60,000 nucleotides of DNA from Malacoraja senta (lineage: Eukaryota): NCBI GenBank assembly GCA_038087875.1, contig CM075989.1:16184001-16244000 (forward strand), read 5' to 3'. Positions within the stretch are counted from its first letter, which is position 1. The number at the start of each line of letters is the position of its first letter. Position numbers and translations under genes: made by a program. The notes beneath the pieces are model-generated. The model ran no database searches. It worked only from the letters and a program-made list of their open reading frames with translations, and had not been told where the DNA came from. Below are positions 121 through 49,059 of this stretch, in pieces.

Positions 121-1819
121 CACCACAAAGGCTGCCTCAATTGTTGGGGACCCTAAGCTCGAATGATTCGGCTTCAGTCTCTAAAATAACTCAGACCTGC
201 ACTTCACAGCTTTCACTCGTCTTGTTTCCTTTATCAACATGCCCTCATTAATCTATCCACTAGACTGGCTTGTGAACATCATATCCTCCCAATAACTCTA
301 ACCTAAATTTATCAGAAATATTCCCTTTGTATCCCTCACCTTCTCTGCAACTTAAAACTAGTTTAACTTAAAACACTTTTTCCAGTTTTGATGAAATGTC
401 ACTGATTCTCTTTCCATGGCTGTTCTCTGAGGTGCTGAGTGTTTCTAATATTCACCATTTTAATTTCATCCTGGAATTTTTTTATGACAGATTGTCATAT
501 GCATTTAAAAAAAAGCCATAATAAACACTTAACACCAATAGTTTCCACGGATGGTATCAAGTATTTACTTTTTGATCGAAGTCGCTTTCCAAGTATTCAG
601 CCATAAATACTAATTGAATAGCTGTACATGTCTGGCATTTTACTTTTAATTTCCTCATTTACTGTTTCTTAGCAATTGATTAAGTAGAACAAATCAATGT
701 TAATTTAGTATTAGTGCGATCATACATATTGAATGGATACCGCATCAATTGAAGGTTTACTCTAAAAACATTTAAAGAATTAGTACACTGAGGAAAAACC
801 ATCAGTATGGCTAATGAGTTACACAGTGTAGCTTAAAAATTGTTTGATTACTTTATCAATACCTCTGGGTTCAAGATTTCAATTTAAACATGGATAAAGT
901 ATATTGTAGATTCTCAAGAGAAACAGATTTTCAATAATTTGTTGACTCCTGACATTTCTGCAACATTTGTAAAAAGTTTAGATTTGCAAAGGAGTGAAAA
1001 GATATTCTAGATTATCTAAATGTTACTAAAATTGTGTGTGTAGGCGTGAGTGCGTGACGTTTCAAAACTCCGCCAAAACGGTACACGATAGCGCTACAAT
1101 TTTTGGCCCACCTTACTCACCATTATCCTGGGATGTAAAACGGACAAGTTTTGTTATGATTGATGTTTTATTTTAAAGGTTATTGACATTTTAAACTTTA
1201 CAAAAGGCACTTTAACACTTTTCCACTTGCCCTTACCATCAGCCGCGTCATAATGAAGTCACAATGGGACCCCGAATCTTATTTACATAAAAAATCTTGA
1301 TTTTTAAAAAATCCGTCTTAATCAAATCTTCCGTTTTCATTAACAGCTAACATTGTGTTTAGGTTTCTAAAAGAAAAAATGCAATATTTAAATGCAATAG
1401 CGATTTTCATTGTGGGGGGGGGGGGAGCTTTAAAAAAAAACACCACGATTTTTATTGTGGGGTGGGATGGGGAAAGGTGAGGAGTGGGGAAGCAGGGGGA
1501 TAGAGGAGGAGGAGGGGGAGGGAGGGGAGAGGGGTTATGGAGGGAGGGAGGGACTGAGGGTATCCGTGTGTGCGGATTTTAAATTAACTGAAAGTCTCCC
1601 CGCGCATGCGCAGTGGGCCCGGTATCCGCGCGTGCGGGATTTGAAATGGCCATGGTGCTGAGGCTGGAGCGAGGTCTGGGGACGACGGCGTCCGGGCCCG
1701 CAGGGAGGGCGAGGAGTGGGACCTGGGGCAATGACTAAGCCGCAGCATCGGCATCCCGCCGGCTCCAGGCCGCTCGGCCCGGCCCCCCGACAGCCACCGC
1801 CTCAAGTACGGGATTTGAA

Positions 1820-2061
1820 ATGACAGCGGCCCTGAGGCTGGGACTAGGTCTGGCAGCAGTGGCGTTGCTGCTCCGAGCCCGCGGGGAGGGAGAGGAGCAG
1901 GACCCAGGGCAAGGACTAGGCCGCAGCCTCGGCTTCTCCCTCCCCCGGCTGCAGTCCACTTGGCCCGTCCCCCCCGACAGCCCCCACCTCAAGTACAATT
2001 TCATCGCCGACGTCGTGGAAAAAACGGAGCTGGCAGTGGTTTACATCGAGATCCTGGGGAG
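1820..2061 (+). pseudogene. HTRA2: HTRA2-like exon 1 fragment (transmembrane segment plus start of protease domain)
   Basis: Encodes [12 protein letters not shown]...[28 protein letters not shown], resembling HTRA2 [28 protein letters not shown]. Followed by donor AG|GTGAGG. No downstream HTRA exons seen. Confidence 0.8.
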
Positions 2062-2495
2062 GTGAGGAGAGAGAGTGGGGGGGATAGGGGAAGAGGAGGG
2101 GGATAGGAGGAGAGGAGGGGGGAGTGGGGGATAAAGCGAGAAGGGGGCAGTGGGGGAGTTGAGGAGGGAGAAGGGAGGGGAGAGGGGTTATGGAGGGAGG
2201 GAGGGAGGGAGTTGCTGAGGGTAGGGGAAAGGAGAAGGAGGGAGGTGAGGGAGGGAGTGGGGGAGGGGAGGAGCAGAGGGGAAGGAAGAAGGAGGGTGGA
2301 GGAGGAGGAGAGAGTGCTGGGGATGAGGGGGAATGGAGGAGGATAGGGGTAGGAAGAAGGACGGTGAGGTAATGGAGGAGGCGAGGGGGAAGAGAGAGGA
2401 GGGGGGTGAGGGGAGGAAGCAGAGTAGGATTTGTGGAGGGTGGGGAGAGGGAGGATAATGGAGGAGGGGAATAGGGGACTGAAGCGGGAGAGTGA
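2062..2495 (+). repeat. Polypurine (G/A-rich) low-complexity tract
   Basis: About 430 nt of almost only G and A. It explains the spurious Pro/Leu/Ser-rich and Gly/Glu-rich ORFs here. Confidence 0.9.
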
Positions 2496-2801
2496 GATGC
2501 GTTCACATTGATCTTATATTTTACAAGTTATTGCCATTTTAAACTTTAAAAACGTCAACCGCGCCTGCGCATTTGGGGGCTTTGGGCGAGTGGTGGAATT
2601 TTGCGTTGGGGAACGGGACCCAACGGGTCCGCACTTGGTCTAGTGTCTAATATAAAAGACATCTGGAGTAAACCAACTTCTGATTAAAACTATTTTGTTG
2701 CTTAAGTTTTAAAATTACCAGCCTGGTTGAACATTTAAAAATAGAGGCCAATACTTAGCACAAAACCTGTCCTTTTCCCCTGGACCATCACTCCCAAAGA
2801 T

Positions 2802-3908
2802 TAGTCTAGTCCAGTCAAGTCACATTTATTTATATAGCACATTTAAAAAACAACTCTCGTTGGCCAAAGTGCTTTACATTTGTTATAAGAATAGCATAAA
2901 CAAAACAAACTACATACAAATATACATGTAGCCCTCACTCAGAGGACGTCAGGAAAGGCTTAGGAGTATAGATACGTTTTTAGTCTTGACTTAAAAGAGT
3001 TGATGGAGGGGGTAGTTCTGATGGGAAAGGGGATGCAGTTCCACAGTCTATGGGCTGCAACCGCAAAGGCGCGGTCGCCCCTGAGCTTATGCCTAGACCG
3101 TGGGATATTCAGCACCCCAAGTCGGCCGATCTGAGGGGCCTGGAGGTGGAGTGGTGGGTGAGAAGACTTTTTATGTAGGTAGGGGGCAAGCCCATTGAGG
3201 GCTTTGTAGACATGGAGGAGGATCTTGAAGTTAATATGGAACCGCACAGGGAGCCAGTGGAGAGAGGCCAGGATCGGGGTGATGTGGTCCCTTTTTCGGG
3301 TGCCCGTCAGGAGTCTCGCTGCGGCGTTTTGGACCAGTTGCAGGCGGGACAGGGAAGATTGGCTGATGCCAGTGTAAAGGGAGTTGCAGTAATCTAGGCG
3401 GGAGGAGATGAATGTGTGGATGATCTTTTCGAGGTCATCAAACTGGAGGAATTGTTTTATTTTAGCTATCGTCCGAAGCTGAAAGAAGCTAGCTTTTACC
3501 ACGGCATTGACTTGTTTGTCAAATTTCAGTGCTGAGTCAAATATCACGCCAAGGTTTTTGACGTGAGGTTTGAGTAGTGGGGTAAGGCTTCCAAGGCTGC
3601 CTGCTATCATTTTGATTGAGTCCGAGGGGCCGAGAAGGATGACCTCAGACTTACTCTCGTTTAGTTGGAGGAAGTTCTGGGCCATCCAACACCTTATATC
3701 CTCGAGGCAGTGGGTAAGGTTAAGCAGATTTGATTGTTTTTTGGGCTTCAGGGGGAGATAGAGTTGTGTATCGTCTGCGTAGCAATGGAAGGAAATGCCG
3801 TGCCTTTCAATGACTTGGCCTAAGGGGGGGCATATACAGGGAGAAGAGTATGGGGCCAAGGATGGAACCTTGTTGAACCCCACAGCAGAGATTAGCTGGG
3901 GAGGAGAA
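2802..3908 (-). mobile_element. L2-clade LINE, 5'-truncated RT plus 3' UTR
   Basis: RT motifs GVQQGSILGP and FHCYADDTQLY, L2-type SRLDYCNSL and HITPILASLHWLPV, a tandem TGACT-like tail, and frameshifts. Confidence 0.92.
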
Positions 3909-4237
3909 AGAGTCTAAGCACTGCATGCTTCCAATGCAATAATGGATGCACCAGAGTTCCGAATAATTCATTCAATTCTTCTCAGCAGTGATGAATCAAA
4001 ACACTTTTGGTAAAACCATACTCGATATAGGTTAAAATAGATACTAAAAAACGGACTAGAAATCTTCATCCTCTCTTCTCCGCCCATAAATACATGCAAT
4101 AACTTGAAAATCTAAATTAACTACTACATGGATCATATATATATATATATTTTTTAAAGAAAGATATTATACAGGTTCTGACAAGGTAATTGTTTTTAAA
4201 GAAAGACAAAATGAAATTGTTCATGCTTGTTACATAC

Positions 4238-4388
4238 CGGCCATGTGCATGGAAATCCAAATAGACAAACTGGTCGTCATGCAAAATTGACCTCTTGGCA
4301 CGTTGATGTTTCTGATGTAGTACATCTGTGTCATACGATAAACCTTCATAATGTCTAATGTACTTATTCAAAGGATTGCCCAACTGCC
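4238..4388 (-). CDS. ADAM10: ADAM10 coding exon 2 (prodomain start)
   Basis: Encodes [51 protein letters not shown], matching the ADAM10 prodomain. Acceptor tttgttccacag, donor CG|gtatgt, 151 nt. Confidence 0.96.
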
Positions 4389-15040: not shown

Positions 15041-17619
15041 GTCTGTTTTTTTTATACCATCAGACCAGTCTGAGAAATTTAACTTGCATGAATACATACA
15101 TTTCTGTGCAAAATGTATTATTTCATGCAGTATAGATTTTATATTTGTCTGTAGATATTTGAAATGGAAAACCTAAATAAGCTTAAAATGTTACTTAAGT
15201 GCCAAGTTACACATCTTGACAATTGCCTCTTATTAGGGTATGGAGCGTTAAAACTCAGATTTACAAGCAGCCGTATCCTGCTATATTGGGCGACACCTCT
15301 TAAACTTGACAATACATGCTGCGAATCTCCAAGATGAGCGACAGCACATGAACAGAGACTCTGGAAAGGATGACTCTCAGATAATTCCACGCCGATTAGT
15401 CTTCTGGAGGTCAAGTGGGTACAAGGGGCATTTCCCACCTTCGAGGGAAATGGTAATCTGCTAGGCAGGCTTATCTGCATTTGTCTTTAAGTCTATTTGC
15501 AGCAGTTGGTAAGTGTGCTGGAAACAAGCCACTTTGCAGCTCTCTTGTTCAGGAAACGGCTGGTGCCAAATTTGAAATCAGAATTAAAAACAAAAGAATA
15601 GATGAAAAACAGCAAAAATATATATATTTTTTAAACAAACAGGTTTCATACAAGGAACAGGTAGCAAATTAACCCTTTGGTTGTAAGTCCAAGTCATAGG
15701 TGTGTGTTACCCCATTATTAGCCACTGATGTATGCTGAGGTAAGCTCCATTCATACTACATAGACTCTACCTTTACTTGGCTGCTTTTCCTACAGCAGAT
15801 CAATGCACGCTACTCCAAAATTATAACTACATTGAAGAAACAATCATCCCCACATCACTGCCAAGAAAAAACAAATGGATAAATGAAAATTGGCCCCAGG
15901 TGTAGGTGTGACATTGGTGACACTGACAGAAAACAACTGTGGGCACTCCAGGCAAAGCCACTTCCAGGATAGGTTCAGTGTGTTCAATTACTCTAACATG
16001 TGCTTACTTAATGGGATTTCTGTTGACAGTACACCAAACATTAGAGCTTATCCGGGAAAGTATATGAAGCACCAAACGATCTAAAACAGCATGGCAGGAG
16101 ATGAAAATGTCTGGAGCAAAGGTGAAGCAACTGCAAATTGAAAGATGTTTTTTGGGAAAGTAGATACAAATATGAAAAAGGGACAGGCATCAGCTTAGGA
16201 TGCTATGCTCCCCACTGCAGGTTTAATAGACAGCCAGAACACCATTTCGTCAGAGTGAAATCAGGGAACGGAAATTGCATTTTATTTGAATAGGATTTTT
16301 TTAACTTAGGAAAACCAAAATAATCTTTCCATTGTAGCAATTCTTTGGATGTAGAGCAAAGTTAAGTGACCTGTAAAGGGTCATTTCTTCCAACTTCTGT
16401 ACATTCAAATATATCTTTCAATAAATAGATGCAGTTAAATGTTTAGTGGTATAGCAACATATTGCTTTAATTTCAATAAATTGATGACGCATACTGCTGA
16501 TAACCAAATGATAGAAGCCTATTCAAAATGTCATTGCATAATTACACTGAGGATTCAACTATAGTTTGTAAAATAAATTCATTTAAATTCACTAGAAAAT
16601 GTGCTCCTGGAAATTTTGCAGAAGTGAGCTTGGCTGGGAATTCAGAACTCATTCCCCAGCCACTCTCTCATAAATAAAAGGAGACAGCCAATGGTGCAAG
16701 CCAGGAAAGGAATTATTTGCCTTCGTACCAAACACAGGGTTTTTTTAAGCCTGAAAACTAAAGAGAGCGATTATCAAGATAAAATTCTAACTGAGGTTAA
16801 TAATTATTTCTCTAAACTCATCTGAATTCTATAATGACAAGAGACTGCAGATGCTAGAATCCAAATCAGAATACTGGAGGAACTCAGCACATCAAGCAGC
16901 ATCCGTGGGGGAAAATAGGTGCAAACAGACATCGCAAGTCTGAAGAAGTCGACCAGAAACGTCACCCATTCCTTCTCTCCAGAGATGCTGCCTGACCCGC
17001 TGAGTTACTCCAGCATTTTGTGTCTACCTTCGATTTAAACCAGCATCTGCAGTTCTTTCCTACACATCGCAAGTTAAAACCTAGCATCAGGACTGAGATG
17101 GAACAGGAATCATTACCAGTATAAAACAGTAAGGGGGGGGAGGGCACAAAGAGAATTAGGGAATGGTAATAGATGGATTCAGATGGGGAGGACATAATGG
17201 GCAGATGGAAGTAGGTGGGAGGGTTGGGGGAGAAAGGATGCTGGATAGATAGAAGCATGTTGGGTTGGGTGGGGTGAGGGTAAGAGATAACAAAGGGAGA
17301 AGAAAACTAGGTGAACAGAGGAGCGTGTGTGGGAGGAGAGCACTGGAATGCAGGTTGCCCAAAATCAGAAGATTCAACGTCAGTTCTGGAGGTCGTAAGC
17401 AACCCAAGTAGAATAGCAGATGATCGTTCACATTGTTTAGGCCTGTCAAAGCAATGGATAAAGCAGAAGACAGTGTGAGATTGGGAAGGAAAGTTAAAAT
17501 GATGTACAACTAACTGGAAGATTGAGGTGGTTGGTGCAGACAGCGCACAGGTGCTCCGCAAAATGGTCGCCTAGACTATACTTAGTTTCACCCTTGTAGA
17601 GATCTTCACAATAAGCCAG

Positions 17620-18540
17620 TTCGGTATTGCGACTGCGCATGCACAGGTCATAGGTCACTCGGGCTAAACACTCGTGGCGGCCGTGCCGCTGCATGGGGGC
17701 AGACCTGCATCTCATCCCAATCCAGCGGCGGCTGGGCCGTCGCCGTCCCCTCCTGAGTGTCCCGTCGGGGGGGCGGCCCCGGGCCGGCAGGAGCCGGACA
17801 GGAGCGGCAGAGCGAGGAGGGGGTGGGGCGCCGCTTCCAGCTTGGCTCTGCCTGTCCCGTGTTGAGCTGGGGCCGGTGCCTCCCCTCCTCACTGGCTGCG
17901 GGCCTGGGCCGACACTCCCGCCCGCGGACCTCTGGATAGAAGACCCTCCTTCAGACTTCCTACACATTAGACTTTTGCGCCGTGGTTGGGATGGATGGGA
18001 GCAGGGATTTCGATGGGCGCAAGGAACAAATGACCTAAAGTTTGCGTTGAGTGATCTGAGTGTTCTTAACGTCCTCGTCGTACACCGCCGTTTTGTGAGA
18101 GTGGTTGGATCCTAGCTTCAGCTCAACCAACGTCGGTCACATTATCCGGACAGGCGGCGGGGGAATCAGGAGCTGATGTGAGGCATCGGCGATGCTCTGG
18201 AATCCTAGTCGCCCGCCGCCGAGTAGCGGGGTCGAAGAGGTAGCGCCCGACCTGGGAGTAGAGGTGTCAGTTCATCCAGCGGCGAGTGGAGAGGCACCAG
18301 CGGCCGCAGACCGCTCACCTGTCGGGCACTGACTCCTCGATCCCGGGATCCAACCACTCTCACAAAACGCCGGTTAACGGCGAGGACGGTAAGAACATTC
18401 AGTTCACTCAATGCAAACTTCAGGTCATTTGTTCCTTGCGCCCGTGGAAATCTCCAGTGCGGTTGAGACGAGGGGGTTCTGAAGTTGCATTCTCTCGATG
18501 GAGGACATTTTCTCGACTCTCCTAGAAGCAACGAGCCATG
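17620..18540. promoter_or_regulatory. Orphan CpG island in ADAM10 intron 1
   Basis: Abrupt GC- and CpG-rich block with NRF1-like TGCGCATGCA (17634-17643), DR1 AGGTCATAGGTCA (17645-17657) and GC boxes. Confidence 0.55.
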
Positions 18541-20606
18541 GCTTTACCAGTGGTTGTCTGTCTAACTGAAATCTCTCTTCCCCACCTCTCACCGTCACTC
18601 CCACTCGTATCTACCCCCCTCTCTCTTGCTGTTACACCCCGTTCGCTTTTTTAAATTCTCAAATGACCTTTGAAAAATCCCATGATTCCTTGCATTTTTC
18701 GGAATACCGAACTGGCTTATTACAGAACTAAGAGTCAAAAGTATTTCATTGTTATATGACAGTAGAACAATGATATTGTTACTTGCAGCAGCATGAGTGG
18801 CCAGTTATTAAATTACAAGTCAAATATCAAGTCATCTGCCTTATAAAGATGTGTTTCAGGTGGAAAAACTTCAGCGAGGATGAACCATAACAGTAGCTGG
18901 GGAAGGCAAAATGAATCCTCGAGGAGTTTTATTTCCCTGCAATGAACAGAAAGCTAAGAAATGGGTAAGAAATAGAGGGAACTACACATAACCCTCTAGT
19001 CCAACAACCACCTCAGAGCCAGAGGTGTGTACCACCATCATTCTTGTCTGCACTGCAAGATTTGTTTAGATACTATTCAAATGTTAGATGGAGTTTAGAA
19101 AAACACATAAATCCACTTATCTCTTACACACAGGAGGAAATGCACACAAAGAGGATCATTCAATTTTACAACACCCTGAACCGTTCACATGTTGTTAAAG
19201 ATTGATAGCTGTGAAACCTAGTGAATTGCGTAATGTTTCTTCTTTGAGCGAGGTAAGATGCCGACCTACATGTAAAACTTCTACATTTGCCTATTAAATC
19301 CTTTGGACACAGCCTGTCATCATTGCGGTTTTATTGCCTCTTCTGCACATTTATGATGATAACCCAAGTCAAAGAGCAGATCTCTTCATTTACCGAATAG
19401 ATAACGGGACTGTGACAACAAAACAATATGTATATATACTACTGTACATGACAAGTGCAATAGAATATCCGCCATTAACATGTGCTCCTCCAACCTCAAC
19501 GATGTCGGAGTGACAGACGGGAATAGCAAAAATCATTTTTAAATACATTGATACCTTCCCTAAAGTACCGTAGGACAACATGTTACGGGTGAGCAAAACT
19601 AAAAGATAAATAGGTAATTGACATGAATGTTAAGAAAGTCCGACACGTAAACACACGCAAGAATCGGTCCGTTTCCTGGAATAGTCATTGCTTCGAACTG
19701 GATCACATCACAGGGTGTGGACATGCACCAGCCGCTGAGATAACATAAACCAATACTGCCCGGGGAAAATATTACTGTGCAAGAACCAAGTGCCGTGGAA
19801 CAAGAGCCATCAGACTGGAGTTTACGACTAATGATTTGGTCACAGAAATTTAGTGCCACTTCTCACGTTCCTTTGTAAGCTGTGTACGGGGATATATTCT
19901 TTCCCCATCAACTAACGTTATAAACCGATATGATCTCACACAATTATAATCGCGTTGAAAACCTCGATCATGCACATAAATAATGTATTTTTTTAAATCA
20001 CTCAATTGCCTGCTGTAGCCTAATGTTTACCCCCCACCTCCCAGAATAAACACCTGTCTGGATCCTAAACAAACTGCAGTCTATCTTTGTTTACCAGCAC
20101 AAGCCCTTTTACATTAATACACTAATTAAAATTTAAAATGCACACGGTGTGGATGAGCCGAGAGTGCTCCGACAGAATGTGACGTTAAACCCCACACGCT
20201 GGAGCAAGTGATGGGGGAAAAGGGAGTGCAAGGCCGGCCGTGCAACAGGAGGGAGCTGGGGCAACGGGAGAGGGATCGGGCCGGCGGGGGGGAAACAGTG
20301 GAGATCGGCCCGGGCAACGGGAGAGAGGGATCGGGCCGAAGAGCTGCGAGAGCCGGGTGCCGGTACTCCAGCAGCGGAAGGCGGGCTCAACCCGCTGCCA
20401 AGGGAACAACACGGCCTCCAACGTGGGTGAGAGGGCTGGGGTGGGGACACTCCGGCGCCCGGGCCAAGAGCCGTGCACCCCCCGGCAGCCATGGCACGGA
20501 GAGCGCCGGGCTTTAGGCCAAGGCCTCGGGAGTCCGGTGATTCCCTGGGCGGGAACAAAATAAAAGCATGGCATCGCAAGCCCGCCGCCAGCCCAGCCTC
20601 TCTTAC

Positions 20607-20673
20607 CCCGCAAACTCGATGGCCAGCACAGCAGCAGCGCGGCTCCGAACCACCGCATCGCTGGAGCCCGCAT
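20607..20673 (-). CDS. ADAM10: ADAM10 coding exon 1 (signal peptide MRAPAMRWFGAALLLCWPSSLR+G)
   Basis: ATG in a CpG island, hydrophobic signal peptide, and donor G|GTAAGA at 20606. The 67-nt exon ends in phase 1 and joins exon 2 in frame ([10 protein letters not shown]). Confidence 0.88.
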
Positions 20674-20710
20674 CCCGGGGCCTCCCGTCCGCCCGGCCCG
20701 GCCCGGCCCG

Positions 20711-20765
20711 CACTCACTCCCTCACTCCCTCACTCCCTCACTCCCTCACTCCCTCACTCCCTCAC
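20711..20765 (-). repeat. (GGGAGTGA)n tandem repeat upstream of the ADAM10 start codon
   Basis: Six GGG tracts spaced every 8 nt on the sense strand. Confidence 0.9.
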
Positions 20766-23531
20766 GGCGGGATTAGATCGCCGACGCTCAGCCCGGCTGC
20801 CCAGCAGAGTCAGCGGCTCTCGGAGCCCCTCGCCCTCGGTGCTAAGCGAGCGCCAGCTGCCGGTTCCTGCCTTCCTGAAAACGCCGCTCCCCGGCCCATC
20901 CCGCCCCCGCTGCCAGATAAGGAGCCCGCTAGCCCTTAAAGGCGCCGCGCCCCAGCTCACAACTGCACTCGTTGTTGGACCTGCTCCAGTCGGAAAGCGC
21001 GTTGCCTCTTGTCTTCGCCCTTTGTAAACACTGTACATGCAGAGAATGAGGTAAAACTGAATGAGAAATACAATCACATAGCTCTCACTGCGAACGTGAA
21101 ATAGCAGCAGGTGGGCCATTCGGCCCGTCAATAGTGTTTAATTGTTATAACACCGAGATCTAAATAATGATGTTCTTGCTTTCTGCAGCTTTACAGGCAC
21201 ATTAATGCAACCAAGAAATGTACAATAGACAATAATACTATCGACTATATATCAGGTAACCCGACTATGGGTATACTAGGTAGTGGACCTTATACAAAGT
21301 TTATAGTAGTTCGGTGCTGAGGTAGACTTGTGGTTAGTATTGTGCAGGTTGGTTCAAGGAACTGATGGTTGAACCTGGAGGTAATGGTTCCTAGGCTCCC
21401 TTCCTCCAGTGAGATGAGAGCATAGCCAGGGTAGTGTGATTGCTGTTCTGCCGTTTATGACTGATCTTCACTCTCTTTCAAATTTCTTACGCTATCCCTT
21501 TATTCTTTAGACATCCAGACATCTATATTGATATCTGTTTTAGCTCCAGCAATGACTGAACCTCCACTGTCCTCCAGTGCAGAGAATTCCAAGGACTCAT
21601 CCACATTAGAATGAGGAACTTGCTCATCATCTGAGTCAAAAATGATACATCCCTTACTTTGAGACTGTGAACCCAGACTCCATAGCCAGGAAAACATTAT
21701 TCCCATGTCCCAACTCTTCGCCCTGTCAAGCCTCTAACAGTACTGTATGTTTCAATGTGGTCACCATCATTCTTCTCAGCTTGAGAGCAGACATTTTGTA
21801 CCTCCCAATTTTAATGCAATAGTTTTCCCACATAACCCATATGCAGTATCATAAGAACATATATATTTCTGTGTTAGTGGATTCTCTCTCCCCCCCCCCC
21901 CCTCCCTTCTCTGCTTCTTAAAACATGCTCATCTTCAAATTTATCCCAATCCCAACAGAAGTTAACCATCACAAAAGCCTTCAGTTTCTTTCCAGCAAAG
22001 TATCAATACTAGCACTGAACAATATAGGAAACAATATCAAATTAACCCTGACCCCTGAAACTCAGCACCAAAGCAGCTGGTGTATTAACTGTTTAATGAA
22101 ATGCATTATAATATCAAGACAAGTCAAGTTTATGGCCTATGCACAAGTACAACAATGAAAAAGTCTATAGCATTTCTATTATGATAAAATTTTAGAAATA
22201 AAGTGGTCTTGTTGGGAACATGATGAAAATTATCAAAATTGACCATACAAACTGCCAGATCAAAATAACAAAAATCATTAATATATTATATATACCATCA
22301 TTATATTATAAACTTTTAAACATATTCGATATCATGCCATACAGTACATTAAAAATGTACACAAATCACATGATAATGCAGTGTATTATTCAAGAAACAA
22401 GAAACAAGAAATATGTGAGGTAATTTTGCTTGAAAGAAGCAAGAAATATCCAACATAGCAAAACTCATGAACAACACAATGATTTTCACTTTGGTATGGA
22501 TGGCTTTACAATTTTAAAGAAATATTTTTACTTTTACCACTGAACCACAGTGGATACAATGTTCAGTGCATCCATCACCACGTTCAGAAGATACATATTT
22601 GTTACACCGTTCCAGTTTATTCACCTATACTTAATTTGAAAACCATAATAGCATTGGATCTATTCCACATCCTGTATTTCTATTCTCATTCCTGCTCCAA
22701 TAACCAGCATAAAAGGCTCCTCTTGCGATCTTCTTCCACAACAGCAGCCTTCACATTTGTTATATAATATAATCCTCCAAAATGTCAGCACTTCCATCTG
22801 ATGACAAACATCAGTTGTGCCTTCTCCTTCTCTCTCTTGTTTCATCATTTCATGGTTTTCTCTCTTGCATTATAAGATTCCTTCGGAGTCTGAAGAAGGG
22901 ACCTGAACCGAAACATCACCTATCCTACAAAGTACTCCAGCACTTACTGTCTTGTTTTGTAAACCAGCATTATCAGATCCTTGCATCTCTATTATTCCTT
23001 CTTTCATTTCTATCAATACTCAATATCTTCTGAGTTGCATCTTAACTCATGTTAACTCTTTGCACAATCAGCAATTTATTTCTAATTATTTTCATTCAGA
23101 ATGCTGTACTCACTACCCATGCTGATGTCCCTGCTACACTCAAACTGGTGACTACTTCTTGGAACAATTCTGTTCAGTCTGCTGTTGTAACTTGAGGTTT
23201 CCACTTGCCTATCACTCCACAAGCACTCTGACCTCTCCATCTATGCTTCCAACACTGCTCCAATGACATTCAAAGAAAACTCAAGGACCAGCAGCTTGTC
23301 TTTGAAATGGAGCATTAGAACTTTCTGTGTGGGTTGGTTGTTTATTTGCCCCAAGGTAGAATTTAGGAGTAGTTGATGAGATTGCAAGTGGAATTAAAAA
23401 TGAATTCATGTTTGTAAATGGGTAGTTGATGGTCAGTGTGGACTCGATGGACCCAAGGGCATGTTTCCTTGCAGTATCTCTGACTACTACAATGGCAAAG
23501 GATCAGATTGAAGCTCTGCAAGATTATAACA

Positions 23532-27359: not shown

Positions 27360-27900
27360 TCACGTTTATCGGAAGTACGCTCTAAGCACTTGCTGCATAA
27401 TATATATATTTGAAATTGTAATAATAAAACTAAAAGGCTTGTCACTTGGAGGGTGGTTTGCAGTAAATTTCAGGGCACGTTTAGGTGCCTGGAAGGCGGA
27501 GTGTGTAGCACGCATGCGTGCTCCGGGCGCCTGACGTCACGAGCTGCTGGCAGTGTCATGGCGGCTGCCTGTCAGCGGCTAGAAGCCTCTTCCATGTAAA
27601 CACCTCGACATTTCCTCCTCTCCTTTCCCTCCCTCTTCCCTCCCTTTCCCCCCACCCACACACCCCGCTTGAAGGCACATGGAAAGCAATGTCAGTGTCG
27701 AGCGGGGCGGCGTGGCCGTGGAGTTAGCCGGAGCTGGGCCGACTGTGGCGTGTGGCGATGGCAGCTTCGAGCGGCGGAAGGGATCGGACAGCCCGGGGAG
27801 CGGTGCCGTGGGCCCGAGGGCCGGGGAGGCGAATAGAGGGGCCGGGACTGCTGCAGGTGGCGATCATCCGTGTTCAAGCTCCGTGACACGCCTGCAAGAG
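27360..27900 (+). promoter_or_regulatory. MINDY2 CpG island promoter
   Basis: CpG-rich. ETS-like CGGAAGT (27370-27376), NRF1-like CGCATGCG (27511-27518) and a perfect CRE TGACGTCA (27532-27539) lie upstream of the ATG. Confidence 0.75.
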
Positions 27901-28452
27901 GGTGAAGATGCGGTGGAGGTGGATGTGGAGGACGCGCCTACTGGGGAGGAGAAAGTCAACAACGGCCCCCAACACAACTTGGTAAACAAGATGGGCGAAC
28001 TGAGTGAGGAGTCTGCGAGCGGGCTGAGGAAGGACCTTCTGCCCGGCCTTGCTCAGCAGCAAGCGGATAATATGCTGCCGGAAGAAAGTAGCCCGAGTAA
28101 AAACCACGAGAGTGACAGGAACCACAGCGCCAGCGATCAAAGCATGCCTGGCGAATCGCGAAGCATCGACTCCCTCGAGTCCTTTTCCAATTTGAACTCT
28201 TGTCCTAGCTCTGACTTGAACAGCGAGGGGACTGAAGACCGAGCCTTGGCTCTCGCTTTACAGAGTGAAGAGTATAACTGCAAGGACGGTGTTGCCAAAC
28301 CATCTGGTTCGAAAGAAAGATTCCCTGGGCAGTCAGTTTATCACATTAAGTGGATCAAATGGAAAGCGGAGAACACACCTATTATTACGCAGAATGAAAA
28401 TGGTCCCTGTCCTCTGCTTGCAATCATGAACGTTCTTCTTTTGGCATGGAAG
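27679..28452 (+). CDS. MINDY2: MINDY2 (FAM63B) deubiquitinase exon 1
   Basis: 258-codon exon with a disordered N-terminus, SIDSLESFSNLNSCPSS, and the MINDY catalytic Cys motif YHIKWIKWKAENTPIITQNENGPCPLLAIMNVLLLAWK. Donor AAG|gtataa. Sits head-to-head with ADAM10 as in other vertebrates. Confidence 0.95.
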
Positions 28453-28876
28453 GTATAATTTAAAATAGTAAAAATCTCTTAATAATATAGTGATGCCTGA
28501 TTAGCTGACAGCATCGTGTGCTCATTGACAGAGGAGCCTAGGTTTGTCTATACCTCAAATTAGAAATTGAGATCTTCATATTCAAAGATCTACACGTCCT
28601 TGTTGTTAGTATCTATGTATTTTCCTCCAGGCTACAATGCTTTGATATGCTTAATTTTGGAGCTTGGCCAAGAAGGCATGCTTGACAGTGGTGGGTACAA
28701 GAAAGTAGGGGAATCTATAATATTAATGAGTTGAAGTAACTCTTAAACTTCTGTGCTTTTTCTTTTAAGATGCTCTTTATGTTGTCACTATGTAGCAGCT
28801 TTCGTATGTGTTACTTTCGTAAGCGCTATAGTTTCTACCTTTTTATCTGATTTAAGAATATCCATTTTTATTATAG

Positions 28877-35963: not shown

Positions 35964-37246
35964 GTACTAATCTGTTAACTATATGTGTTTTGTGGATGGA
36001 GCCCTAAAGGAAAAGGACAGCAAGTAATGTTAATGCACATAATTCTGTAATATTTTTCGTGCATTTCAAAAATGCCCCAAAAGGAACAAGATTCATAAAG
36101 CTTTTATTCACCAAATTGTTTGGCCAATTTTGATATGATTTCACAGAAATCATAGCCAACATATTAGTTTTGATTTGGACATATTGAGTTAAAAATATGT
36201 GAAATCAATTGGTGCACTTGTGGAATTGTGTGGTAGGATGGGCTTGTAATAAAGGTTTTAAATGCCAAACCCCAGGGGAATGAACTGAATGTGGAGAATA
36301 GAGCAAAATGATTCTTGAAAAGACTGCTGTGATTGGTGGAGAGAAAGGCTGAGTTTATTATATTTTGTGGCTTTGCCCCACCCTGCTTTAAAAACATTTA
36401 AAATATATTTTCAGAATGGCGGGGAATCAGTTTTTTGCGAAAACTACCATGTTTCCCTCTTGGATTTGATGTAAACTTTTCTGCATGTAAATGTACTAAC
36501 TGCTCCAGAATCAGGTGTGTCATACAGCTTTCCCAGTTTTCCTTCAAGTATGGGCTAGATTTATTGTAGTTTATCTTGGAAGTGGAAAAGGAAGTGAATT
36601 GGCTTGGAGCAATCTGCTTGGATGAGTACTTCAGCAGATTTTTTTTAGTCAAATATGTGGAGTATTACTTTCAGAACAACTTGTTTAGTGCATTCAGTTC
36701 ACAATAAATATACATAAAATTGTTTAAAGCACCTATAAATAGAAGGAAACAATTAGTTTTTGTCATGCTCTGTTTCTAAAATATAATTTGAAACAGATCA
36801 GGCAACTCCATTAGTTGCTGTTTTCACTTGGAGCTTTTGCAGATTTTTGTAAGGGCACCAAAATGTCTGCAGCCTAAGCAATTTTGGATTTTCATTGCCG
36901 ATTAAACTGAAAACATGAAACCCTTTAGATGTAAACTGAAAAAACGATCTAATAAACAGAAGAGGTAGTAAATGTTCAGAACACAAGAACTTAAGTAGGT
37001 TAGTTGAGCCTGCTGTACCATTCATCGATATTGTGGCTGCCTTCTTCCTCAATGCCATCAACACTACATGAATAAGTACTAAGTCTCTATCCTGTCACTG
37101 CTTTTGTACAGAATGACTGAACTGAACGTCCACAACTATGGGGCTAGCAAATTCCAGATTGGCCACCCTTTGTGTGAATAAATTTCTCTTCATCTCTGTC
37201 CTAAATAACCTATTCCTTATGAAACTATGCCCCCCCCCCCCCACCA

Positions 37247-37446
37247 NNNNNNNNNNNNNNNNNNNNNNNNNNNNNNNNNNNNNNNNNNNNNNNNNNNNNN
37301 NNNNNNNNNNNNNNNNNNNNNNNNNNNNNNNNNNNNNNNNNNNNNNNNNNNNNNNNNNNNNNNNNNNNNNNNNNNNNNNNNNNNNNNNNNNNNNNNNNNN
37401 NNNNNNNNNNNNNNNNNNNNNNNNNNNNNNNNNNNNNNNNNNNNNN
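37247..37446. other. Assembly gap (200 N)
   Basis: Run of N directly after a poly-C tract. Confidence 1.
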
Positions 37447-38316
37447 TTCATCCTGTGAACTGAGATGCCCTCAGATTGCGGGAGGATGGTGTAGAAAGAT
37501 GCAGTCCAAATGCAAACAAATGAGATTAGTGTAGCTGGCAAAAGGGTCCACATGGACCTGGTGAGATAAAGGGTTGATTTCTGTGCTCTTTAAGTCCATG
37601 AATAATAATAATAAAATACTTTTCAGGCATAATAGGTTTGAACAGAATTGGCATTGATTTATGAAAGGAAAATTATGTTTGGATTTCTTTGAAAATGTGA
37701 CTGGTTAACAATTAAAGGAGAAGCATTGAATAAAAGGAGAATTAAAGGAGATTTCTTGATATTCAGAAGGCTTGCATAAGGTCCCATAGAGGAGATCAGT
37801 CAACAAGGTTAGATTAAAATTGGGAGTTGCCAATTGTAACTGAGCAGCGATCAATGCCTGTGCCCCAGCTTTTCATGACCTATATAAACTGGTGATTTGG
37901 CTGAGGTGAAGAAACGTAATATTTCCAATTTGGTTATTATACCAACTCAAGGGGATTGTGAGCAGCAAAGTGGATGTGAATTGGCTTCAAAGGGTGGGCA
38001 AGAAACATGGTGGATGCTATATATTAATGGAAAATATATTCCACTTTGGTATGAAATGGTGACAAGTTGAATAACTTTGAGGTTCAAAGAGCTCTATGTG
38101 TCCTTCTACACAACTCATTGAAAGTCAACATATGTGCTATTGATGATGATCTTAGTAGATTGATGTGAACACAAATCTTCACAATGGAAAAGGAGCGAGC
38201 TGATAGAAAATGTTTCTGAATATATATTTCGATTCCCAATGAAAGACTGATGCCTTATTGTCGCTTTTGATAGTTGGTAATGATATATCTGATAGAAAGA
38301 ATAATTTCTTAAATAT

Positions 38317-47175: not shown

Positions 47176-47307
47176 GATGTGGTGGAAGCAAACATGATAG
47201 CGATGCTTGAGAGGCACTTAGACAGGCACCTGAGTTGACAGGGAATGAAGGAATATTGAATGCGTGCAAACAGGTGGGATCATGGTCTGAATGGCCTATT
47301 CCTGTCC

Positions 47308-48148
47308 AATTACAATTCAATTTATTTGTCATTTGGACCCCGTTGAGGTCCAAACGAAATGTCGTTTCTGCAGCCATACATTACAAACGAAAAGACCCGA
47401 GACACAACACAATTTAAACATACATCCATCACAGCGCTGTGATGGAAGGCAAAAAAACGTATCTCTCCACTGCACTCCCCCCCCCCCCTCCCCCCCCCCC
47501 GATGTCAGAGTCAAAGTCAAAGCCCCCGGCGGACGATGGTGATTGTCCCGCGGCCATTAAAGCCATGCCGGGTAATGCAAGGTCGCGCACCGGGTCTTGG
47601 TGTTAGAGCCCCGGCGCGCGCTCGCAAAGTCCCGCGGCCATTCCAAGCCGCGCGGGGCGATGATGTAAAGCCCCGCTCCAGGTGCTCTTCAACCCCGCAA
47701 CTCGGGCGGGAGAAGTCGCCGCTGCGGAAGCCCTGAAAAGCGGTCTCCCACCAGGGACCCGCGGGCCTCCGGTGCTGCCGTCCGCCAGACCCGCGGTTGT
47801 AGCCTCCGAATCTCCGGCGGTCGGGTCGCAGCAGCGCTCCACCCGCTCCGGACTCGGCCAGCCCCGTGACGGTGAGTAGTCCGCAGCTCCGCAACTGGAG
47901 CCCCAGGTCGTTCCTGCTGGAGGCCGCTCCACGTTGCCCAGCCCCAACGACAACGGAGACCCGACAAAGAAAAGGTCGGGTCTCCCGTGCAGGGGAAAGA
48001 TTTTAAAGTCCCCCCCCCCCCACCACCCCCACCCCCCCACACACATACCCCGACAAAAAAATAAAATAAAAACTACATAGAAACGAGACAAAAATAATAA
48101 AAAGACAGACGGACTGCAGAGGCCGCTGCTGACGAGAGTCGCGCCGCC
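47308..48148 (-). mobile_element. GC-rich non-coding retroposon-like insertion
   Basis: Sharp boundaries inside a CR1-type 3' end. The minus-strand 3' end has a hairpin, ATGACAAATAAA and a (TTGAA) tail. Confidence 0.6.
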
Positions 48149-49059
48149 CACACAACTGTGCTGGGCTGCACTGTTCTATGGAGAAAGCAGTCCATCTCCT
48201 GTTGGTTCCATGGCATTATGCCCCAGGAAACTATCTTGAATGCATTCAGTGAAGCCATGTCCCAACTACTTTTGCTGGTTTCAGTATTTCAGTCTACATG
48301 TAGATGAAAGCCTTGCCCCATTTCCATTTAATTGCTGCCAGTTTTACCAGAATATATTTCTTGGTTAATATTCTTTCCAATGTTATGGTATTAGGAGTTG
48401 CACAGTGGCACAGCTGGTGAAGCTGCTGCCTCATGGCACCAGAGACCTGGATTTGATCTTGACATTGTGTGTGTGAAGTTTGCACATTCTCCCAGAGTCC
48501 GCTTGGACTTGCTTGCTATTCATTCAGGGCCAGATCACCTCTCTGGTCATTGTTATTATCAAATCTACCCCACACCACTTCCTTTTTGGATGTGTTTTCC
48601 AAATCTGGGAATATTTTTTGCATTCGCTGGTCACCATGGAACTGCTGCTTGGTCAAATGTATTTATAATTATTCTTGTAATTAGCTTGTCTAACCTGTTA
48701 ATGATAGAAAATGGGTTAAGATGCAGTCAGAATTACAAATTAGAGATTTGGCCTTGATCTTTCCCCGTCAATGTATTTCTACTTGAACTGTCCTCTACTC
48801 CAAACTCTTTCCAGAACACAGATATGCTCTGTCAGAAATCTAAGGTAAGAATCACTGGTCATACCACATGTTTAACTATGTCTTGCAATCTATCTTGTGT
48901 GGAGAGACTTCATTGTTCAAAAGATTTTGATGTATGTGCTTTTCTTGTTGGTAAGATTTAGTCGGTGTATAATCAAATAATCTCAACAGTTTAGCATTAA
49001 GCAAATGTTAAGGGCATATTTAAAATACTATCTGTGATCTAATGTTAAATTACAGCTTT

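Follow-up and report, generated by a model that had tools for sequence, protein, structure and literature searches.

The skate Malacoraja senta carries, antisense within an intron of its ADAM10 gene, a canonical non-autonomous Helitron that holds a fragment of HTRA2 exon 1. Coordinates below are those of the window, the whole 60,000-nt stretch of CM075989.1 that was analysed, and relatives were sought in the 1.94 Gb assembly. The element occupies 1015..2643 of the plus strand (1629 bp). Taking all of the evidence together, we consider it quite likely that it belongs to an old non-autonomous Helitron family which acquired HTRA2 exon 1 as DNA, through a composite end-bypass capture, and which later decayed without function.

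The element in ADAM10 intron 2

The preliminary description had proposed Helitron-type ends at 1015 and 2643, with a TC start, a 3' hairpin, CTAG, insertion between A and T and no target duplication, and each of these was found as stated. The left border reads A1014|T1015C1016, and the right border is the CTAG at 2640-2643 followed by T2644. The 5' end, consisting of the TC start and the family's 5' core, spans 1015..1158 (+), while the 3' half spans 2500..2643 (+) and includes a hairpin at 2616-2630 with a 6-bp stem (2616-2621/2625-2630) and a 3-nt loop, placed 13 nt from the 3' end. This hairpin is weak by itself (z -1.58, with 8 of 200 shuffles equally good), and its position is conserved among family copies. 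No terminal inverted repeat was seen among the 25 longest of the 48 repeat pairs in the element, no target duplication flanks it, and there is no poly-A at the end of its cargo. Elements of the Helitron2/Helentron class insert at T|T and have sub-terminal inverted repeats; we rejected this class, as the insertion is at A|T with TC and CTAG ends.

The ORF and splice donor that had been placed between these ends also stand, but two features of the interior had been overlooked. The first is a tandem duplication of the cargo (1632-1809 and 1806-1996), and the second is a 51-nt internal Helitron segment, X, located at 1159..1209 (+) and repeated within the 3' half as X' at 2507-2557, the two copies being 84% alike and flanking the cargo on both sides. 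Cargo unit 1 (1632..1809, +) is degenerate, stops after the Lys-Tyr codons and matches unit 2 at 75%. The HTRA2 exon 1 fragment at 1820..2061 (+) encodes the transmembrane segment, the processing region and the start of the mature protein, and it is followed by a phase 2 splice donor within an Arg codon (2062..2067, +) and by a purine-rich tract B (2066..2495, limits approximate, +), which may be the captured start of HTRA2 intron 1. Another purine-rich stretch, tract A (1456..1555, limits approximate, +), probably duplicates, secondarily, the one that follows the donor, and it is missing from the least rearranged copies described below. Joints from 1130-1139 to 2500-2516 were considered as proof of a short element and set aside, because the X/X' repeat can generate such joints.

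A GC-rich segment at 1556..1645 (+) resembles the Helitron's own sub-terminal repeats, and a captured promoter at this place is not shown. An NRF1-like word at about 1601-1612 was likewise rejected as a sign of a captured promoter: allowing one mismatch, it occurs in 8 of 28 copies, and it is similar to the 3' core of the Helitron itself.

The exon boundaries of ADAM10 were read from splice sites. Exon 2 (151 nt) lies at 4238..4388 (-), exon 3 about 24 kb to the left of the window (-), and the coding part of exon 1, which would encode the signal peptide, was placed at 20607..20658 (-) from its translation, its donor and a phase match to exon 2. The host gene is 94% identical to Amblyraja ADAM10, and its exons gave no match in PDB or Pfam. 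The element lies in the 28-kb intron following exon 2, and because exons 1 to 3 are on the minus strand, it is antisense to its host; the earlier assignment to intron 2 was right, but this orientation had gone unmentioned.

At the 5' junction, contigs from two compared organisms, C and D, read across with 29+7 and 28+5 differences over some 585 nt, and organism A matches it exactly; the 3' junction is spanned by no piece among those listed. Since the 5' junction is common to C and D, the insertion is older than their split. The empty site that had been proposed as a check was not seen, the 5' junction being present in organisms C and D, and spanning matches considered as empty sites were merely self-matches of loci L022 and L023.

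Other features of the window are as follows. Adjoining the 3' end of the element, positions 2800-3913 (-) hold a very abundant LINE-like fragment with a 317-aa frame that looks reverse-transcriptase-like by eye and with deep coverage in all runs. Positions 1-130 are presumably a tRNA-derived SINE of cartilaginous fish, and an assembly gap (Ns) lies at about 37240-37450. Long stop-free frames rich in Gly, Arg, Pro and Ala occur at 17500-18540, 20130-21140, 27580-28455 and 47300-48175, and ADAM10 exon 1 falls within the one at 20130-21140.

The HTRA2 cargo and its source locus

Protein comparisons bear out the original identification of the cargo as HTRA2 exon 1. The HTRA2 peptide closes the ORF at 1739-2062, in which an ATG is present at 1820. 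Among PDB matches HTRA2 is best (E 3e-7), ahead of HTRA1 (2e-3) and with HTRA3 also well behind, and of 16 longer proteins sawfish HTRA2 scored highest (E 1.6e-17), ahead of HTRA2s from other sharks and rays. One match to protein P0001, at C9:18190491, reaches residue 193 at 43%, with stops.

The donor falls at 2061|2062 and, because it splits an Arg codon, a TGA comes directly after. The HTRA1 and HTRA3 genes of the same genome have an acceptor at the identical codon and phase, and two shark gene models (P0009 and P0017) terminate at the same Arg or one residue past it; from these coincidences, we take the end of the cargo to be an intron boundary of the HTRA family. The preliminary description had put the first intron of HTRA2 at this very position, and the position and phase in HTRA1 and HTRA3 agree with this, but the HTRA2 intron itself was not found; the literature searched yielded no publication on the intron position in human HTRA2. 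The whale shark model P0009, named HSPA12B-like, ends with HTRA2 exon 1 and is probably two neighbouring genes merged in annotation.

All 36 distinct copies compared halt at the donor and then run into a purine tract, with none entering exon 2, and this supports well, without proving, the earlier preference for genomic capture over retrocopying. The sequence AG|GTGAGG is kept in 25 of these copies and the GT in 29. The copies differ more widely at the other end of the exon. The element at 1015-2643 lacks a start codon and most of the presequence, its cargo beginning at the transmembrane segment, and other subfamilies retain more of exon 1, so that the coding piece ranges from about 80 codons in this element to about 170 in the longest copies. 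The majority frame of these longest copies stays open over some 90 codons as far as the transmembrane segment, where it joins the little skate protein. Presequence similarity, in sequence of low complexity, exceeded shuffles for only 6 of the 11 proteins compared from sharks and rays. No native-type start codon is present in the 6 longest copies. The ATG at 1820 was also considered as the native start and is probably not one, as longer copies run in frame upstream of it without an ATG.

Efforts to locate the source gene in the assembly returned only relatives. A sawfish query covering HTRA2 from exon 2 onward (protease and PDZ) gave 7 matches of 13 candidates, all of them HTRA1 or HTRA3, and a skate query for exon 2 found nothing in the assembly. 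HTRA2 is absent from the first 20 kb of contig C1602, and the HSPA12B part of the whale shark fusion model, a query without a positive control, gave 0 candidates in the assembly. Only three lysyl-oxidase loci were found, where five are expected, and LOXL3 is a neighbour of HTRA2. In the little skate, HTRA2 sits on a 63-kb contig. These neighbour tests suggest that the absence of HTRA2 is probably an assembly gap, with GC-rich regions missing, rather than a loss of the gene.

A genome-wide family and its capture of exon 1

The suggestion that the fragment is spread through the genome as a gene-carrying family was upheld. First-look candidates numbered 3445 for the 5' end, 567 for the cargo and 1826 for the 3' end, with 40 scored for each, and the 40 scored relatives of the 5' end showed 80-86% identity. 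Over the whole assembly, a 25-nt terminal pattern marking the 3' end was found at no fewer than 7,773 sites at up to 2 mismatches, and a 32-nt exon-end/donor pattern at no fewer than 219 sites at up to 3 mismatches, with 0 sites for either reversed control; both counts are lower bounds, and segmental duplicates may account for some of the sites.

The boundaries of these relatives are consistent with those in the window. CTAG|T was present in 43 of 54 projected 3' ends, and T was the next base after CTAG in 60 of 60 ends chosen for an intact CTAG. Among 29 classified 5' ends, 13 lie head-to-tail behind another element, 9 are solo, 3 are unclear and 4 have no motif. The solo elements start with TC in 9 of 9 cases by the script's rule, have an A before the TC in 8 of 9, and share at most 2 bp between their flanks in 9 of 9, i.e., they show no target duplication. 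The check that had been proposed on whether the ends and the cargo co-occur came out in favour: in a sample of 33 rows with both ends, biased towards cargo, 27 hold the exon end. These 33 rows contain one cargo unit (15 rows), two (12), a partial unit (1) or none (5), and one of the cargo-less rows, L046, is a slicing artefact.

Could the cargo instead be a processed or partial retrocopy, or a segmental duplicate, of HTRA2, flanked by Helitron ends merely by chance? Some decayed cargo fragments have indeed been multiplied by segmental duplication on unplaced contigs, but the cargo and both ends are found together at many unrelated sites with differing flanks, the exon end is in most of the rows with both ends, and poly-A, target duplication and exon-exon junction are all absent. 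We regard this reading as largely refuted already and as extremely unlikely.

Two further observations concern the arrangement of copies. At 24 of the 60 3' ends, the family 5' end follows without its first letters (e.g., L012, L013, L025, L049 and L079), and the remaining right flanks are rich in A and T, having A at positions 10 and 11 in 27 and 26 of 36, like the element's own 5' end; such head-to-tail arrays suggest insertion into the family's own 5' end, or rolling-circle concatemers. In addition, larger segmental duplicates have amplified a decayed piece of cargo that lacks the exon end (L102-L105, L109, L111-L112 and L114-L121), which are mostly on unplaced contigs and 82-99.9% alike over kilobases.

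An autonomous partner is present in the same genome. The Helitron Rep domain PF14214 (HUH nuclease) has 112 matches in the assembly, in open frames of up to 1766 aa, and in these RepHel elements a PIF1 helicase domain lies behind it. Their ends are related to those of the cargo family, with 96% identity to the family's last 27 nt and similar 5' ends, and the terminal stems are paired variants as read by eye (CAGACCC/GGGTCTG in RepHel versus GGGACCC/GGGTCCC in the family). Autonomous loci with frames of 1727-1766 aa are G000:C4719:110868-115985 (L079-L080), G000:C3619 (L083-L084) and L066-L075. Ten RepHel copies agree with one another at about 99%, which marks them as younger relatives and not as the mobiliser of the cargo family itself; they are very young and possibly active.

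The route of capture can be read most clearly from six loci, L097-L101 and L108 (L097 and L098 being near twins), which are the least rearranged copies. From left to right, they contain the 5' end, X, a terminator-less beginning of the 3' core, exon 1, the donor, the purine tract, X' and the remaining 3' core. The purine tract behind the donor is 451-581 nt long and 85-88% purine, and upstream of the exon no such tract was found in these six, the maximum being 27 purines in 40. L097 and L098 continue straight into the hairpin and CTAG; L099 and L100 reach them later, and in L101 and L108 they are broken or interrupted. This anatomy is what one expects if replication runs past one Helitron end and on to a second element, and it fits end-bypass, a model with experimental support from Helraiser in the available portions of PMC4778049.

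The steps would be the following. A short Helitron without a working terminator would have been located at or within the 5' part of HTRA2 exon 1, and rolling-circle strand displacement would have carried on across the exon, its donor and roughly 0.5 kb of intron 1, rich in purines, before stopping at the hairpin and CTAG of a second, 5'-truncated Helitron copy. The composite would then have been mobilised in trans by a RepHel protein, with subfamilies arising by internal deletion and duplication (a shorter exon, a doubled unit, a tract copied upstream, or loss of the exon). The copy at 1015-2643 would have entered ADAM10 intron 2 antisense before the split from C and D and decayed without function. 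Because the source HTRA2 locus was not found, we only infer the intronic origin of tract B, and we likewise infer which protein mobilised the composite and in what order the events took place. A tree of the 27 of the 33 both-end rows that have sufficient 5' core leaves 11 of 24 inner branches open, and the order of events is therefore not fixed by it.

A different account of the donor junction is that a piece of exon 1, from DNA, pre-mRNA or cDNA, was copied as filler by template switching into a Helitron that already had the purine tract, with microhomology at the exon's G-rich end making the joint, so that the intact-looking donor is partly coincidence. We consider this unlikely. It stays alive because the exon-end/donor word recurs 2-3 times in the purine tracts of three cargo-less rows (L009, L011 and L049), which group together in the tree (93/93); the autonomous elements also contain similar low-complexity tracts (in reverse orientation, 66-70%), and the absence of a native start and promoter fits as well. 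Yet a break exactly at the homologous intron position would require luck, the tract of the least rearranged copies is confined to the donor's downstream side, and the cargo-less group falls amid cargo-bearing rows under midpoint rooting, a weak placement. Furthermore, LINE-made cDNAs usually lose their 5' end rather than keep it, according to the portions of PMC12001565 available. We thus retain end-bypass capture of genomic DNA as the preferred reading.

Decay, expression and comparison with known captures

The copies look close to neutral decay in their sequences. Divergence from the majority ranges from 6 to 25% over 36 copies, with a median of 10% and 9% for the element at 1015-2643. The frame from ATG to donor is open in 6 of 24 copies with the ATG context, this element included. 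Distinct alleles comprise 42 synonymous and 95 non-synonymous changes, a synonymous fraction of 0.31 versus 0.30 expected under neutrality. Pooling the copies gives a pN/pS of 0.57, lower than the 0.75 that neutrality predicts from the mutation spectrum, in a comparison whose copies share ancestry and were partly chosen via protein search.

Expression was looked at in one poly-A RNA run of organism C, of which 6% was read; among the joints and loose ends listed there, none fell at the donor, and 495 joints and 3885 loose ends exist besides those. Depth over the cargo was low, with 2.7 versus 0.3 at 1974-2107, and the reads there are apparently mostly antisense if the library is stranded as usual. 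Since ADAM10 exon 2 was barely covered too, this run is weak as a test of splicing. No RNA runs with the element are listed among the indexed runs, and no batoid fusion protein with the cargo appeared among the longer or near protein matches.

These data bear on whether some sense copies have been co-opted, their exon and donor serving as a mobile exon that adds a transmembrane and processing module to downstream genes. The GT kept in 29 of 36 copies, the open ATG-to-donor frames and the lowered pooled pN/pS would be in keeping with this, and HelibatN3 works as an exon trap in the available portions of PMC4778049. Against it, the element at 1015-2643 is antisense to ADAM10, neither a captured promoter nor a native start was found, the RNA run listed no donor joint and its reads point to antisense under usual strandedness, the protein searches gave no batoid fusion, and the distinct-allele counts look neutral. 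Co-option is, in our judgment, very improbable. Also very improbable is the more specific idea of a long-lived skate exon-shuffling cassette, in which some sense intronic copies would join their HTRA2 exon, with presequence, transmembrane segment and processing region, by splicing to exons of host genes and so retarget the proteins to mitochondria. Neutral decay following a DNA capture remains our preferred reading, and there is no sign so far of a function for the family copies.

High-copy capture of gene fragments by Helitrons is well known in maize. The available portions of three papers allow a comparison with vertebrate cases. HelibatN3 of Myotis lucifugus carries the NUBPL promoter, 5' UTR, exon 1 and part of intron 1 in about 1000 copies (PMC4224331, PMC4778049). 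As far as those portions go, the Malacoraja family is alike in being a non-autonomous TC...CTAG Helitron that has brought a first exon and donor to hundreds of copies in a vertebrate, while it differs in gene and lineage, in having no promoter, UTR or native start that we found, and in the size of the coding piece, given above, which is 6 codons in HelibatN3. It is known from genomic copies, whereas HelibatN3 is known with chimeric transcripts. HelibatN539 is a composite capture at KCNQ5 whose parental locus, with both halves, has been seen (PMC4224331, in the part available). In that description, as here, one Helitron's 5' end and another's 3' end surround host DNA, as in the end-bypass, chimeric model; unlike there, the composite in Malacoraja is read from the element's internal duplication, the parental locus being absent from the assembly. 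Lastly, the available part of PMC12001565 describes Heli1Xen1 of Xenopus laevis, a young, horizontally moved family with 19 captured CDS fragments in 64 insertions, 17 of the 19 from 5' ends, and at most 17 copies per fragment. The two families are alike, on that account, in the capture of 5' coding pieces by a Helitron of a non-mammalian vertebrate, and unlike in that the Malacoraja family has one fragment at 219 or more sites, is old by its median divergence and is shared between species.

That Helitrons take up first exons together with the donor and multiply them has thus been described before, and what is new is the lineage. In the literature searched, we found no report of a Helitron with HTRA2, of Helitrons in skates or Leucoraja, or of a Helitron capture of this sort in cartilaginous fish; Repbase or Dfam may hold an unnamed consensus.

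The family extends high-copy Helitron gene-fragment capture to cartilaginous fish. The unexplained first-exon bias recurs here, apparently without a promoter, and this apparent lack argues against a captured promoter being the only reason such cargo amplifies. The subfamilies keep the steps of capture readable, with two Helitron halves around an exon and then deletions and duplications, and so offer a natural example of end-bypass. On the practical side, hundreds of HTRA2 exon 1 look-alikes will mislead HTRA2 annotation and primer design in these fish. Finally, a naturally active Helitron of vertebrates may be sought among the candidate RepHel copies that are intact and 99% identical, and if the cassette idea were true, such near-identical elements with related ends could still move cassettes.
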